Sequence record: OL615012
Source of the DNA: Shigella phage vB_SboM_Phaginator
Strand: one strand, 5' to 3'
Length of the DNA: 64,000 nucleotides
In this document: one piece after another, positions 24,211 to 31,921 of the stretch
Layout: the number at the start of each line of letters is the position of its first letter
Numbering within the stretch: the first letter of the stretch is position 1
Notes under the pieces: generated by a model
Database searches by the model: none
The model's input: only the letters and a program-made list of their open reading frames with translations
What the model was told of the DNA's origin: nothing
Translations under genes and position numbers: made by a program

Positions 24211-24792
24211 CTAACCGAGCTTTTTAGTTAATTCATTCCAATGTTTTCTGCACAAAGAAACATAAATTTCATCACCAATACAGATTTGATTACCTTCTTT
24301 AACTGGTGTTCCATCTTCCATTAATCGAGCTGTCATAATCGCTTTTTTGCCGCAATGACAGACTGCTTTCAGTTCAATAAGTTTATCTGCAATCGCTAAA
24401 AGTTCTTTAGAACCTTCAAACAATTTTCCAGCGAAATCAGTCCTTAATCCATAAGCCATAACAGGAACATTATATGTATCAACAATTCGGCTCAATTGAT
24501 GCACTTGTTCAGTTTTTAAAAACTGAGCTTCATCTACAAATACGCAATGAATATCTTTTTGTGCTTCGGCCCATTTATAGAATTCGAAAATGTCCATATC
24601 ATCTGTAATAATATTCGCTTCCTGCTTAATTCCAATGCGAGAAACGACTTCACAGACAGAATCGCGAGTATCAATAGCAGGCTTAAGAACTAATACACCC
24701 ATTCCACGTTCTTTATAATTATGTGCAGCAGTCAAAAGAGAAGCAGATTTTCCAGCATTCATTGCTGCATAAGTAAAAATTAAACTCGCCAT
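24211..24792 (-). CDS. tk: Thymidine kinase
   Basis: 193 aa; P-loop AAMNAGKS and C-terminal zinc-binding Cys pairs; T4 Tk length. Confidence 0.9.
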   Translation of the reverse strand: MASLIFTYAAMNAGKSASLLTAAHNYKERGMGVLVLKPAIDTRDSVCEVVSRIGIKQEANIITDDMDIFEFYKWAEAQKDIHCVFVDEAQFLKTEQVHQLSRIVDTYNVPVMAYGLRTDFAGKLFEGSKELLAIADKLIELKAVCHCGKKAIMTARLMEDGTPVKEGNQICIGDEIYVSLCRKHWNELTKKLG

Positions 24793-24801
24793 ATCACCTT
24801 C

Positions 24802-24987
24802 TTAAAGCGTATTCACATAAGCTATTAATTCGTTTTCTTTCTTATCAAACCGATCAGCAAATTCTTCCTGCTGTTCGGGAGATAGCGGGCCATATTCATC
24901 ATAAAAGGTGTTTGCTTCTGTATGCTCATCTAGAAGTTCATGGATAAGCTCAAACAATTTATCTTTTTGTTCTTTACTCAGACTCAT
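24802..24987 (-). CDS. Hypothetical small acidic protein
   Basis: ORF track 61 aa. Confidence 0.45.
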   Translation of the reverse strand: MSLSKEQKDKLFELIHELLDEHTEANTFYDEYGPLSPEQQEEFADRFDKKENELIAYVNTL

Positions 24988-25157
24988 ATATTAATTTCCA
25001 GGAGTTTTAAAATAATTCGCTTTTGCTTAAATATTTCCATAGTTAAATGACCAGTATCTTTTTGACCGATTCCAATGGCAAAACCTTTATTAACAGCGAG
25101 TTCAATTAAATTATCAAGCTCACGTAACACTTCGTATTGTAACTCAAAACTATTCAT
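24984..25157 (-). CDS. Hypothetical small protein (57 aa)
   Basis: Manually read ORF MNSFELQYEVLRELDNLIELAVNKGF...; ATGA overlaps at both ends. Confidence 0.35.
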   Translation of the reverse strand: MNSFELQYEVLRELDNLIELAVNKGFAIGIGQKDTGHLTMEIFKQKRIILKLLEINI

Positions 25158-25381
25158 TTTGGTTTACCTTCTTTAACGAAATCAGGATAAGGATAAAATC
25201 CCGAATAAAATCCTTCACCTTTATGATTGATGCATCCTTTATTAGAACAATAGCACCAATAATCGAAATCACAAGCCATTTCATCATTACATAAAGCAAA
25301 AACAACAGGCCATTTACACTTTTCGCAATGGGCATTTTTAAGAATACTAGTTTGGCTCATAACCATGTAACCTTTAAGCAA
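25154..25381 (-). CDS. Hypothetical Cys-rich (putative zinc-binding) protein
   Basis: 75 aa with nine Cys incl. CEKC and CYC pairs. Confidence 0.45.
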   Translation of the reverse strand: MLKGYMVMSQTSILKNAHCEKCKWPVVFALCNDEMACDFDYWCYCSNKGCINHKGEGFYSGFYPYPDFVKEGKPK

Positions 25382-25569
25382 TATTCTTCTACATGTTGTT
25401 TACGACCTTTCTTATCAATAAAGGTATATTCAACGAATGTTCCAATGTAGTCTTTATCTACATCATGTGGACTATTAATTGGACATTTAGTACGGCAAAT
25501 GCGTTCCCATTGACGAATAATTTCCACTTTGTTTTTAGGATCAAACGGATGTGGGTAATGTACTTTCAT
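25357..25569 (-). CDS. Hypothetical protein
   Basis: ORF track 70 aa. Confidence 0.45.
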   Translation of the reverse strand: MKVHYPHPFDPKNKVEIIRQWERICRTKCPINSPHDVDKDYIGTFVEYTFIDKKGRKQHVEEYCLKVTWL

Positions 25570-26020
25570 AATCCACCACTATTAAATCAATATCAGGAGT
25601 AAACATGTCGATTAATTTAGAAACTTTATCCCAATCGCCGCCAGCAATACCACAACCTATGCGTGGAATGTAAATTATCGGTTTAAACAAAAGGGTTTCT
25701 GCCTGTAGATTTAATTCTATCATGCAGTTTACTAAAGCACCATAATCAAGATTAGGACCTGGTTCGTATTGCGTATACAAGTTATAACATATGCCAAAAC
25801 CATTAGGTTTATGTTTAAAAACAATAGACATATCACCGAGTTTTTCACGCGAACCATATTCAGTTGTGGTCTTATCTATTTCTAAAATTTTGGGATAGGC
25901 TCTTGCTAATTGACCAGCTACACCACTGCCCATTGTATGAAAACAATTGCACCCGTGCGCAATAATATTACCTTGAAGAAATAGGGCGACAATATCGCCC
26001 TTGATATATTTTACAATCAT
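25541..26020 (-). CDS. Macro-domain protein (DarG/TARG1-like ADP-ribose processing fold)
   Basis: 159 aa; motif HGCNCFHTMGSGVAGQL resembles the N-x-C...MG-x-G-x-A signature of TARG1/DarG-type macrodomains (recalled, not searched). Confidence 0.6.
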   Translation of the reverse strand: MIVKYIKGDIVALFLQGNIIAHGCNCFHTMGSGVAGQLARAYPKILEIDKTTTEYGSREKLGDMSIVFKHKPNGFGICYNLYTQYEPGPNLDYGALVNCMIELNLQAETLLFKPIIYIPRIGCGIAGGDWDKVSKLIDMFTPDIDLIVVDYESTLPTSV

Positions 26021-26364
26021 CTAGTACTCAATCCTCGATTATAAGAATCTACCAAACGGTCAACCATTGAATGACAAGCGGCTTTATCTTTCTCCTCCGC
26101 AACTGAACATTCTAAGGTATTCCACTTTTTAGCATATCGTTTTAATAATGTATCGTTTTTGTATCTGCTTGATTTATCTCTTTCTCCGTCTTTATATGCA
26201 TATATTAATTTCTGTGCAAATTCAGCTTGGCATGCTTTATTTTTCCCACAATAATCTGCCGCAGTGCGGTTTACATATTCTCTAATTTCAGTATATGATG
26301 TATCTGCTGACGCAGAAGCAGAAAATGAAATTAATCCTATACATAAAACCAAAATTTTAGTCAT
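26017..26364 (-). CDS. Hypothetical secreted protein
   Basis: 115 aa with N-terminal signal peptide MTKILVLCIGLISFSASASA. Confidence 0.5.
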   Translation of the reverse strand: MTKILVLCIGLISFSASASADTSYTEIREYVNRTAADYCGKNKACQAEFAQKLIYAYKDGERDKSSRYKNDTLLKRYAKKWNTLECSVAEEKDKAACHSMVDRLVDSYNRGLSTR

Positions 26365-26902
26365 TTACTATTTCCAAAAGTTTATTATTTTTAAGGTAAT
26401 TAGCCTTTTCTAGGACTTCAGAAGCATATTTAGAACCAGCTTTAACATTCCATCCCGAATTATAAGAGGATATTGCTTTTCTTATATCGCCCTTATGTAT
26501 ATTTAACCAATAAGAAAGTTCAATGTACGCCCAGGAAGCTGAATTGGATCGTTTATTCAACATTCTTTTTATTTCAGCATCGGTCATATTATAACCAAGT
26601 TCCTTAACTCTTGCTCGCATAGTAGGCAAATAATTTTGGAACATTCCGTAGGCGTGATGCTTTGGTTTAGATTTTAAATTAACTCCGCCAGAGCTTTCTT
26701 GCCATAAAATAGCAGCCATTATATGACCTAATCCGCTCTTGTGGATATTTTTGTGTGTTTTATATTTTCCATCCTTAGAAAATTGTTCCCCGAATTGATA
26801 CGCGTAACGCATGTTATCGAGTTGGACATTACTGAAAGTATGCTCGGAGCTATGTGCCATCATTGAAATGGCCAATAGACCAGCGAGTAGTGCTTTTCTC
26901 AT
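26357..26902 (-). CDS. Putative lytic transglycosylase-like periplasmic protein (vs.1-like)
   Basis: 181 aa; signal peptide plus ...LWQESSGG... motif typical of SLT-domain catalytic Glu region. Confidence 0.55.
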   Translation of the reverse strand: MRKALLAGLLAISMMAHSSEHTFSNVQLDNMRYAYQFGEQFSKDGKYKTHKNIHKSGLGHIMAAILWQESSGGVNLKSKPKHHAYGMFQNYLPTMRARVKELGYNMTDAEIKRMLNKRSNSASWAYIELSYWLNIHKGDIRKAISSYNSGWNVKAGSKYASEVLEKANYLKNNKLLEIVND

Positions 26903-26909
26903 GCTTACC

Positions 26910-27371
26910 TCATTGAGTTTTAATTACTGCTTTAGAAGCCTTTCCTGGTAAACGACGACTGTTGATAATTGCCATCCTACATTGAAGTGACGGGTCTTTG
27001 AACTTCTCATTAGGCTTACAAACTGTAAATCCAAGCCAAAGATTTCCATCTGTGATTTCTAAACGTCCAGGACGATATTCAACCCCATCAATAAAATCCT
27101 CGTCAATGTCAGGACGCGGAGGCATACTCAGGAATTCATTAACTTCTAAAACATGGTCTTTTATTTTATGGAATAATTCAAAAACATATGTCTCATCAAT
27201 CTCCCGTTGAATTGCACGATCAAGAAGATGTTGAGAATATTTTAGATGAAACGATGAGACCCCTGCTGCTTTTGATGCCTCACGAATCTCATTGTTAATT
27301 TGACGAAACTCCGACTCAAAGTGACGACGAAGCTTATTTCGACGGATAAAAACTTCTGTGTTGATAGTCAT
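26910..27371 (-). CDS. regB: Endoribonuclease RegB
   Basis: 153 aa, same length as T4 RegB; recalled sequence match; early promoter directly upstream. Confidence 0.75.
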   Translation of the reverse strand: MTINTEVFIRRNKLRRHFESEFRQINNEIREASKAAGVSSFHLKYSQHLLDRAIQREIDETYVFELFHKIKDHVLEVNEFLSMPPRPDIDEDFIDGVEYRPGRLEITDGNLWLGFTVCKPNEKFKDPSLQCRMAIINSRRLPGKASKAVIKTQ

Positions 27372-27398: not shown

Positions 27399-27427
27399 AT
27401 TATACCACAGTCAAGAGGAAAAGTAAA
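27399..27427 (-). promoter_or_regulatory. Early promoter upstream of regB
   Basis: Minus strand GTTTACT - 17 bp - TGgTATAAT. Confidence 0.6.
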
Positions 27428-28558: not shown

Positions 28559-28939
28559 TCAATTAGAAAATAAATTTATCCAAGATTGTTCTTTAATTAA
28601 AAATGGCTCAGAATCATATGCCATTAAACTCTGTGTGATTAGTCCTTTAAAAGGCCCATCAATAAATTCCATGGTAAAATATGGAATTTTATTCATTAAC
28701 CGTGCATTAGGAGCCGTACACAAAACTCTGCATCCTTTGAATACGCCTTTTTGTAATTTGTATTGCTTGGGATAAAATTCGCTCAAAATGTTATTATTTG
28801 CTAAAATTTCAAAATGATTCACCAATTTATTTTTAATAGTTTTTGGCGAAAAATAAAGATATTCGAAAAGCTGAGTGTCTGTCATCATTGCATTCCGATT
28901 ATGAAAAACTGTGGACGAGTAATACCACCAATGCAGCAT
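28559..28939 (-). CDS. Hypothetical protein
   Basis: ORF track 126 aa. Confidence 0.45.
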
Positions 28940-29475
28940 TTACTATTGCAACAGTGGTGCACAGTTTCAATATGAATATCGTAAATTTTATCCATATCAG
29001 GAGATTTAACAGGCTCATCGATTATATACAAAATCCGCGAAAGCGATAAACCTCTGAACTTGCTACCTCTATTACCAACAAAACTACGGACAGAAACAGT
29101 AAATAAACGGAATCGAATATCATCATTAGAATAGCGTGAAAATTCTTTTTTAATGTGGCCCGCAGAAATTTTAGCGTAAGCTGAAGTATTAGAAAGAACA
29201 ATAACTGTTCCACCGTCATACAACCAATTAGCGGCAAAATTAGTTACTGCAGTTGATTTACCGGATTGACGTCCACCATCTAGTCGAAGTGTGCAGTATT
29301 CTTTAAATAAATGTGGCGAATCAGGTACATAAAATCCACTATTACAAATTTCTTCTACTCTAGCATCAGAATGGTGTGTAAAAGCATTCATCAGGGATAG
29401 ATAAGGACCAGTTAAAAATGTTCTCATTTTATTCTCTCTAAATTTGGGCCATTCCATGGCGCGTGAATTGTCCAT
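28885..29475 (-). CDS. Small P-loop NTPase, function unknown
   Basis: 196 aa; Walker A GGRQSGKST and Walker B-like ILYIIDEP; Cys cluster CCNSKCC. Confidence 0.55.
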   Translation of the reverse strand: MDNSRAMEWPKFRENKMRTFLTGPYLSLMNAFTHHSDARVEEICNSGFYVPDSPHLFKEYCTLRLDGGRQSGKSTAVTNFAANWLYDGGTVIVLSNTSAYAKISAGHIKKEFSRYSNDDIRFRLFTVSVRSFVGNRGSKFRGLSLSRILYIIDEPVKSPDMDKIYDIHIETVHHCCNSKCCIGGITRPQFFIIGMQ

Positions 29476-29593
29476 TTCTGTATTTACCCATTACCGCACT
29501 TGGGCTCGACCTTATTACAGGTTGGCTGGAATCCCTCACAGAATCATGAGGTCCAGCTTGTTCCCATTTTATTTGAATGTAAATAGATCTGAG

Positions 29594-30494: not shown

Positions 30495-30631
30495 TTTTCC
30501 TTAGTAAATTGATTTACCAAAGTATTTGTACCAAGTCGGACGTTGATCAATTTTTTCATCTAAGCGTGCTTGATTTATCGCAATGGACGCTTCGGACGGG
30601 TCATAATTTCCTCCAAGTAGTTGATGAATGT

Positions 30632-31465: not shown

Positions 31466-31921
31466 TTAAAAGAGGCTGTTCATTATTCGGTAAAGTGAAG
31501 GACCCATCACATATTGCCACTGAGTACGAGGAATAAGAGCAAAAGCATCCATCTCTGGAATCATAACACCATCTTTATTTTCAAAATAAGACTCGCAATG
31601 GCAATTTCTAAACATCTCATGCTCTACTGGAATCGTATAATAAAACAGCTGTAAGTCTTTATTACTAGAATATTTAAATACACCTAGGTCTTCTAGAAGG
31701 TCTGGATTATAATTGCTAAAACCGGTCTCTTCTAAGCATTCTCTTCGTGCTGCATCTAGTGCGCTCAAATCAGAATTTTCTACACGGCCTTTTGGAATAT
31801 CCCAGCGATGTGCCATCATTCCAGGCTTACGAGAACCAGTAACCCGTCCCATGAATAAATCTTTATCTTCTGTCATAAAGATAATACCAGCTGATAATGT
31901 TTTCATTTTAATTTCCTGCAT
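31466..31921 (-). CDS. nudE: Nudix hydrolase NudE
   Basis: Nudix box GRVENSDLSALDAARRECLEETGF; alternative start at 31906 (MKTLSAG) with in-codon AGGAAA RBS. Confidence 0.8.
   Translation of the reverse strand: MQEIKMKTLSAGIIFMTEDKDLFMGRVTGSRKPGMMAHRWDIPKGRVENSDLSALDAARRECLEETGFSNYNPDLLEDLGVFKYSSNKDLQLFYYTIPVEHEMFRNCHCESYFENKDGVMIPEMDAFALIPRTQWQYVMGPSLYRIMNSLF

Follow-up and report, generated by a model that had tools for sequence, protein, structure and literature searches.

A divergent tk.4/adfM allele in a Shigella phage encodes a macrodomain protein of predicted glutamine type that probably reverses DarT2 DNA ADP-ribosylation

Loss of adfA and adfN (gene 30.3, whose NADAR enzyme product acts specifically on guanine adducts) does not make phage T4 sensitive to DarTG2 (PMC11825919), from which a further factor was to be expected; that gap was filled by tk.4, now adfM (anti-DarT factor, macrodomain). 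In the accessible part of a preprint of November 2025, transposon sequencing on a DarTG2 host yields T4 tk.4 as its only significant hit, T4 with a clean tk.4 knockout is sensitised to DarTG2, and the gene receives its new name (bioRxiv 10.1101/2025.11.20.689424). The same part likens T4 AdfM to the macrodomain of M. tuberculosis DarG and states that enzymatic removal of ADP-ribose "seems likely", with no assay described there. The anti-DarT role of tk.4 is thus already published, and its macrodomain nature has long stood in the T4 annotation, where the gene is labelled "phosphatase; contains A1pp phosphatase motif".

The name AdfM was coined independently by two groups, for T4 Tk.4 and for gp104 of PhiKZ. 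The latter, a chimallivirus protein imported into the phage nucleus, strips DarT2-made ADP-ribose from DNA in vitro, and its N23A substitution lowers de-ADP-ribosylation of DarT2-modified DNA (Cell Rep 2026, PMC13309987). SCO6735, a cellular macrodomain protein of Streptomyces coelicolor, hydrolyses thymidine-linked ADP-ribose on DNA; Q85A abolishes this activity, and a water-mediated mechanism without a lysine nucleophile was proposed by its authors (PMC9411070).

The locus and its T4 counterpart

The DNA analysed here (the window) is a stretch of 64,000 nucleotides from Shigella phage vB_SboM_Phaginator (OL615012), a Tequatrovirus (T4-like) genome. A 1.2-kb region around tk.4 found matches in 693 phage records, with a highest identity of 98.8% (Shigella phage ESh24). 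The original prediction had placed a 159-aa ORF at 25541-26020, within the block of small ORFs between tk and regB; exactly this ORF is present, on the minus strand and with an ATG start, and the expected genes surround it:

24211-24792, minus strand: tk
24802-24987, minus strand: tk.2 homologue (Pfam DUF7438; 54% identity to T4)
24984-25157: 57-aa ORF without a Pfam match and without a counterpart among the T4 proteins compared
25154-25381: 75-aa Cys-rich ORF, extra relative to T4 (Pfam Phage_zn_bind, E=3e-29)
25357-25569, minus strand: tk.3
25541-26020, minus strand: tk.4/adfM, encoding a single-domain macrodomain protein
26017-26364, minus strand: vs
26357-26902, minus strand: vs.1
26910-27371, minus strand: regB

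Sequence searches mark 25541-26020 as a genuine gene and rule out a chance ORF: besides the Pfam match given below, its product matched PHROG 335 (E=4e-71) and 795 homologues at E<=1e-3 in a large protein collection, and tblastn with the same protein reached 2862 phage records in many lineages. The window protein is 57% identical to T4 Tk.4 (155 aa) over 155 aa, across the full length (E=2e-69). Given this identity, the shared slot between tk.3 and vs, and flanking genes that are 97-100% identical, the window gene is the positional orthologue of T4 tk.4. The two proteins are of one length class (155 and 159 aa) and one fold family, their first 14 residues and loop 1 motif are identical, and both have Gln at the catalytic position; they differ in loop 2, which reads GAGIGKGNW in T4 and the family consensus GCGIAGGDW in the window. 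The same slot is occupied by tk.4 in T4-like phages of Erwinia, Edwardsiella and Klebsiella. Reversal of DarT-type DNA ADP-ribosylation, which the original prediction had put forward as a possible function, draws support from the genetics of this 57%-identical orthologue in the accessible part of the T4 preprint (bioRxiv 10.1101/2025.11.20.689424).

Several other parts of the window depart from T4. The interval from tk to tk.3 (24793-25381) is unlike T4, and no tk.1 homologue was found in it. The UV-repair gene denV survives as a C-terminal remnant at 30504-30629 on the minus strand (aa 96-137 of 138, 74% identity), with no full-length denV anywhere in the 64-kb window, in which ipII and mobD likewise had no match. 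A vs.8 homologue at 28888-29539 (minus strand) aligns to T4 Vs.8 as two segments that lie in different reading frames, with 29444-29539 covering aa 1-32 and 28888-29475 covering aa 26-219; a frameshift, an error in the sequence or another start codon could explain the split.

Macrodomain class and the catalytic position

For assignment of the fold, the profile search and structure prediction named in the original prediction were both carried out, and both returned a macrodomain. Pfam Macro (PF01661) matched the window protein at 34.2 bits against a gathering score of 22 (E=2.6e-8; profile positions 2-117 of 118). An AF2 model built from a 66-sequence alignment, from which the T4 sequence was left out, reached pLDDT 94.2 and pTM 0.88; a single-sequence AlphaFold model (pLDDT 37.7) was discarded. 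The modelled protein is predicted to adopt the three-layer alpha/beta/alpha fold with a mixed central sheet, and in a Foldseek search of the PDB the top hit was TARG1 (E=2.6e-10, target-normalised TM 0.81), ahead of BT1257, Poa1p and DarG macrodomains. The fold/class comparison values were as follows:

BT1257: 18.3
M. tuberculosis DarG: 17.7
Poa1p: 17.3
T. africanus DarTG: 17.0
TARG1: 16.8
next in line, coronavirus and MacroD types: 13.8

All 15 of the 15 PDB sequence-profile matches fell in the ALC1-like macrodomain class. The window protein is a member of this class (TARG1, DarG, Poa1p, SCO6735) and not of the MacroD, PARG or viral type. Scores against PDB sequences were obtained with one profile built from the phage side and one from bacterial relatives:

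BT1257: phage-side profile 74.8 bits; bacterial-relative profile 61.6 bits
TARG1: phage-side profile 66 bits (full-length alignment); bacterial-relative profile 38.6 bits
SCO6735: phage-side profile 61.8 bits; bacterial-relative profile 54.2 bits
Poa1p: phage-side profile 59 bits; bacterial-relative profile 37.0 bits
M. tuberculosis DarG: phage-side profile 49.6 bits; bacterial-relative profile 46.2 bits
T. aquaticus DarG: phage-side profile 43.9 bits; bacterial-relative profile 42.0 bits

BT1257 and SCO6735 are the best-scoring bacterial PDB proteins with the phage-side profile, and with the bacterial-relative profile they rank first and second overall.

Three segments of the protein could be matched to functional elements of characterized macrodomains:

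25907-25957, minus strand: loop 1 motif HGCNCFHTMGSGVAGQL, aa 22-38, with invariant H22, N25 and G33
25769-25783, minus strand: strand end NLYTQ, aa 80-84, with the Gln84 codon at 25769-25771, located by profile alignments
25631-25666, minus strand: loop 2 PRIGCGIAGGDW, aa 119-130, the glycine-rich diphosphate-binding loop

As had been claimed from the sequence, HGCNCFHTMGSGVAGQL resembles the TARG1 and DarG signature, aligning with the first ADP-ribose-binding loop of TARG1 (AHCISEDCRMGAGIAVLF) and with that of DarG. Loop 2 is near-identical to the corresponding loops of SCO6735 (PRIGCGLAGGTW) and BT1257 (PRIGCGLAGGKW). Across 66 phage-side and 80 bacterial homologues, H22, N25, G33, N80, Q84, G122, G124 and W130 are invariant. 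With both glycine-rich ligand loops conserved, the window protein is predicted to bind ADP-ribose. In comparison of residues 60-159 with the PDB, loop 2 alone was aligned; the full alignment to SCO6735 came from the bacterial-relative profile.

In the profile alignments, Gln84 shares its column with the catalytic lysine of DarG (K80) and TARG1 (K84) and with Gln85 of SCO6735, which is essential in that enzyme:

Window protein: NLYTQ, Gln84
TARG1: Y-L-I-T-K, Lys84
DarG: N-F-P-T-K, Lys80 (T. aquaticus)
SCO6735: N-M-I-G-Q, Gln85 (residue 105 of the PDB chain, native 85 assuming a 20-residue tag)

Ala126, in loop 2, sits at the position of TARG1 Asp125, so that the Lys84/Asp125 dyad of human TARG1/OARD1 (PDB 4j5r/4j5s) is replaced by Gln84/Ala126. 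Mapping of catalytic residues, also proposed at the outset, therefore gave a divided answer: the ligand loops are kept, and the DarG/TARG1 lysine is absent, with Gln84 in its place. The description of the protein as DarG/TARG1-like holds for the macrodomain and fails for the catalytic residues (Gln84/Ala126 against Lys84/Asp125 and Lys80), where the resemblance is closer to SCO6735 and BT1257.

Comparison with DarG points the same way. The DarG proteins of M. tuberculosis (5m3i), T. aquaticus (5m31) and T. africanus (7omu) have the FPTK lysine, whereas the window protein has the Gln of YTQ. DarG is about 330-340 aa long with a C-terminal DarT-binding domain and is encoded beside darT; the window protein has 159 aa and lacks that domain, and its gene lies beside tk.3 and vs. 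The NCBIfam DarG model scored 28.2 bits against an equivalog cut-off of 250, with the window protein covering positions 2-142 of 338, and the PADLOC DarG model scored 28.1 bits (positions 3-144 of 329). An origin as a captured DarG antitoxin was rejected, since the protein lacks both the catalytic Lys and the C-terminal domain and its gene has no DarT linkage. The window protein would be DarG-like in outcome yet lacks the features that define DarG.

SCO6735 (PDB 5e3b) and BT1257 of Bacteroides (PDB 2afc/2fg1), in turn, share with the window protein the Gln-type position, a PRIGCG[IL]AGGxW loop, the single-domain architecture and the lack of an adjacent DarT. Identity to the window protein is about 26-29%, and these two are cellular proteins, not phage counter-defence factors; Val25 of SCO6735, described as catalytic, corresponds to Gly23. 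On this alignment, T4-type AdfM is placed in the lysine-free, Gln-type SCO6735/BT1257 group. His22 of the window protein aligns with Poa1p H23 in a shared H-x-C-N-C motif; the C-terminal half aligns poorly with Poa1p.

PhiKZ gp104 matched the window protein by blastp with E=0.001 in two short segments. The two have in common the loop 1 Asn (N23 in gp104, N25 in the window protein), the superfamily and the proposed anti-DarTG2 task; they differ in that gp104 has the DarG-type FPTK lysine and the window protein Gln84. In an hmmalign alignment of gp104 to the family profile, this lysine lies two columns off Gln84, which was read as an alignment slip because the identical FPTK of DarG aligns its K to Q84; the FPTK lysine of PhiKZ would then occupy the Gln84 position. 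The two proteins named AdfM are accordingly assigned, by their motifs, to different macrodomain subfamilies, T4 Tk.4 to the Gln type and PhiKZ gp104 to the Lys-type, DarG-like one.

Bacterial relatives, allele divergence and expression signals

Scanning bacterial genomes, one for each species, gave at least 503 relatives. The best 80 of these are 34-44% identical to the window protein, and all are stand-alone ORFs of 146-244 aa. Every one of the 80 has Gln84 and the same invariant residues; position 84 lay outside the pattern used to search for relatives, and its Gln is thus an independent observation. No DarT2 homologue was detected within 4 kb of any of the 80 by tblastn with one DarT2 query, the P. 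aeruginosa sequence printed in PMC13309987, a search that very divergent toxins could escape. Apart from spurious high-GC antisense ORFs, the only recurrent neighbours were lspA and ileS, at 18 loci. In Hyphomicrobiaceae and Rhodobacterales, the Gln-type macrodomain gene lies between ileS, upstream of it, and lspA (signal peptidase II), which follows directly; this is a housekeeping neighbourhood and not a defence island. That the bacterial relatives are stand-alone, bear Gln84 and showed no DarT2 neighbour in this search argues for a housekeeping-type macrodomain family, and against a DarTG2 operon, as the source of phage tk.4.

Among phages, Tk.4 homologues were also seen in other settings. 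Among the records OZ038337.1 (16847-17302), NC_048075.1 (86217-86672) and OZ196335.1 (83746-84183), the homologue adjoins a nicotinamide phosphoribosyltransferase gene in Acinetobacter phages and a ribose-phosphate pyrophosphokinase gene in Vibrio phage K412. These neighbours are NAD+ reconstitution genes, which hints at a link to NAD/ADP-ribose metabolism in those phages.

Sliding-window identity to T4 dropped over a sharply bounded segment:

about 25500-25950, no strand assigned: divergent allele cassette relative to T4 (60.9-61.4 kb)

Nucleotide identity to T4 is 43-77% in the body of tk.4, as against 97-100% in vs, vs.1 and regB and 95-100% in tk.3; the first 38 nt of tk.4 are identical in the two phages. 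Amino-acid differences fall mainly in aa 131-155 and in aa 53-79, where a hairpin runs into the catalytic strand. Since they cluster beside the catalytic strand, specificity could differ from that of the T4 protein. The window-type allele was found at 90% identity or more in 318 phage records; T4, T2 and the other sampled Tequatrovirus records have the type that is 55-57% identical to it, and this T4 type is present in a much larger set of records. A neighbour-joining tree gave the T4 type a long branch and put the window type closer to the alleles of other T4-like genera and Straboviridae. The long branch, together with a loop 2 that departs from the family consensus, makes the genetically tested T4 allele the atypical one. 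Within the conserved first 38 nt, a stretch 100% identical to T4, lies a perfect 8-bp G+C-rich hairpin, AGGGCGATATTGTCGCCCT (25983-26001, both strands), which may form an RNA structure or mark a recombination boundary.

Candidate expression signals were sought on the minus strand:

26017-26036, minus strand: translation start region, with a GAGGA Shine-Dalgarno-like sequence at 26032-26036 and the tk.4 ATG at 26018-26020
27399-27427, minus strand: sigma-70-like promoter TTTACT-17-TATAAT with extended TG, just upstream of regB, from a consensus scan only
25714-25739, minus strand: MotA-box-like motif TGCTTTA-N12-TAGAAT inside the tk.4 coding sequence, facing tk.3 and tk

The GAGGA is 11 nt 5' of the tk.4 ATG, and this ATG overlaps the vs stop codon TGA (26017-19) as ATGA, an arrangement that suggests translational coupling of tk.4 to vs. 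Between the promoter at 27399-27427 and tk.4, the minus strand holds at most weak matches to promoter-like sites or MotA boxes. Early co-transcription of regB, vs.1, vs and tk.4 from that promoter, the likely early promoter of this unit, would fit these consensus matches. A middle promoter with a MotA box directly upstream of tk.4 was considered and rejected, the sole nearby match being the one inside tk.4; MotA-box-like patterns number 19 across the whole window against 5.1 expected. For T2, a RIL-seq preprint of 2026 reports an interaction of the tk.4 transcript with the host small RNA ArcZ (bioRxiv 10.64898/2026.06.19.733364); that preprint mislabels tk.4 "putative thymidine kinase", and the level of Tk.4 protein is unchanged in a delta-arcZ host.

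Proposed mechanism and alternatives

Taken together, the product of tk.4/adfM is probably (at a rough probability of 0.7) an early, free-standing macrodomain ADP-ribosyl glycohydrolase that reverses thymidine ADP-ribosylation by DarT2 with chemistry of the SCO6735 type. The DarT2 toxin places ADP-ribose on thymidines of single-stranded phage DNA and so blocks replication. AdfM, probably made early from the regB-vs.1-vs-tk.4 unit, would grip the ADP-ribose by means of the glycine-rich loops at aa 22-38 and aa 119-130 and cleave the bond between ribose and thymine by hydrolysis, whereby normal DNA would be restored. Gln84 may orient the distal ribose for attack by an activated water, with no lysine nucleophile, probably as in SCO6735 and not as in DarG or TARG1. 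By analogy with the T4 orthologue, the window allele is presumed to have the same target and activity. Counted against this reading are the identity of only 57% to the T4 protein of the genetic work, the missing DarG/TARG1 Lys, the weak scores with the DarG models and the lack of detected DarT2 linkage in the 80 nearest bacterial relatives.

Protection is also presumed to be catalytic in nature: the residues that bind ADP-ribose and occupy the catalytic position are invariant in phage and bacterial proteins, a pattern that points to selection on catalysis. SCO6735 and the DarG macrodomain do, however, inhibit DarT by binding (PMC9411070), so protection need not be purely catalytic. A protein that mainly binds and blocks the DarT2 toxin, as a stoichiometric inhibitor that leaves modified DNA unhydrolysed, would fit the behaviour of catalytically dead SCO6735 (Q85A), DarG (K80A) and TARG1 (K84A), all of which inhibit DarT in vitro, SCO6735 most strongly (PMC9411070). 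Rapid divergence of alleles in a conserved backbone is likewise the pattern expected of a surface co-evolving with a variable toxin. We consider such an inhibitor quite unlikely, given the invariance just described, a length of 159 aa with no DarT-binding C-terminal domain (against about 330-340 aa in the DarG models) and bacterial relatives around which tblastn with one query detected no DarT2 within 4 kb. Another activity is implied by the database labels "phosphatase" and "Appr-1-p processing protein", that of a Poa1p-like ADP-ribose-1''-phosphate phosphatase or of a hydrolase of small molecules such as O-acetyl-ADP-ribose or ADP-ribose-based immune signals. This is very unlikely: the label is a transfer of the Poa1p motif and not the outcome of an assay, and the profile match to Poa1p is below those to BT1257 and SCO6735. 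Degradation of ADP-ribose-derived immune signals, the other function raised in the original prediction, drew no support from this analysis. To our knowledge, T4 RNA repair by polynucleotide kinase and RNA ligase 1 generates no ADP-ribose-1''-phosphate, which also counts against a phosphatase. Moreover, the sole known phenotype of the orthologue, as given in the accessible part of the preprint, is specific to DarTG2 (bioRxiv 10.1101/2025.11.20.689424).

The main substrates might instead be ADP-ribosylated proteins or RNA, modified by host defence such as the mRNA ADP-ribosyltransferase CmdT or by the phage enzymes Alt, ModA and ModB. The presence of three ADP-ribosyltransferase genes in T-even phages themselves speaks for such substrates. 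For TARG1 and SCO6735, protein-linked as well as DNA-linked ADP-ribose is a substrate (PMC9411070), and CmdTAC targets T-even phages, according to the accessible part of PMC11618068. Set against this, DarTG2 was the one defence system in the T4 screen under which the gene was flagged, going by the accessible part of the preprint (bioRxiv 10.1101/2025.11.20.689424), and we regard protein or RNA as the main target as decidedly improbable.

Within one phage genus, tk.4/adfM comprises at least two deeply diverged alleles, swapped as cassettes in a near-identical backbone. A further proposal is that the two differ in specificity, be it for different DarT2 variants or for different ADP-ribosylated bases or nucleic acids. 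We hold this difference in specificity to be unlikely. If it were true, the locus would be a polymorphic counter-defence gene matched to the diversity of host DarT, Gln-type and lysine-free, and drawn from stand-alone bacterial enzymes and not from the DarG antitoxin. Two very different alleles in T4-like phages, of which the T4 one alone has been tested, would amount to a natural experiment on specificity. For mutagenesis of AdfM, the residues indicated by the probable SCO6735-type glycohydrolase reading are Gln84 and Asn25, and not a lysine.

Elsewhere in the window, a Nudix hydrolase gene at 31466-31921 on the minus strand (Pfam NUDIX, E=1e-13) adjoins the lysozyme gene e, the position of nudE/e.1 in T4. 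In T4, NudE hydrolyses ADP-ribose, and a macrodomain enzyme would release this same product.
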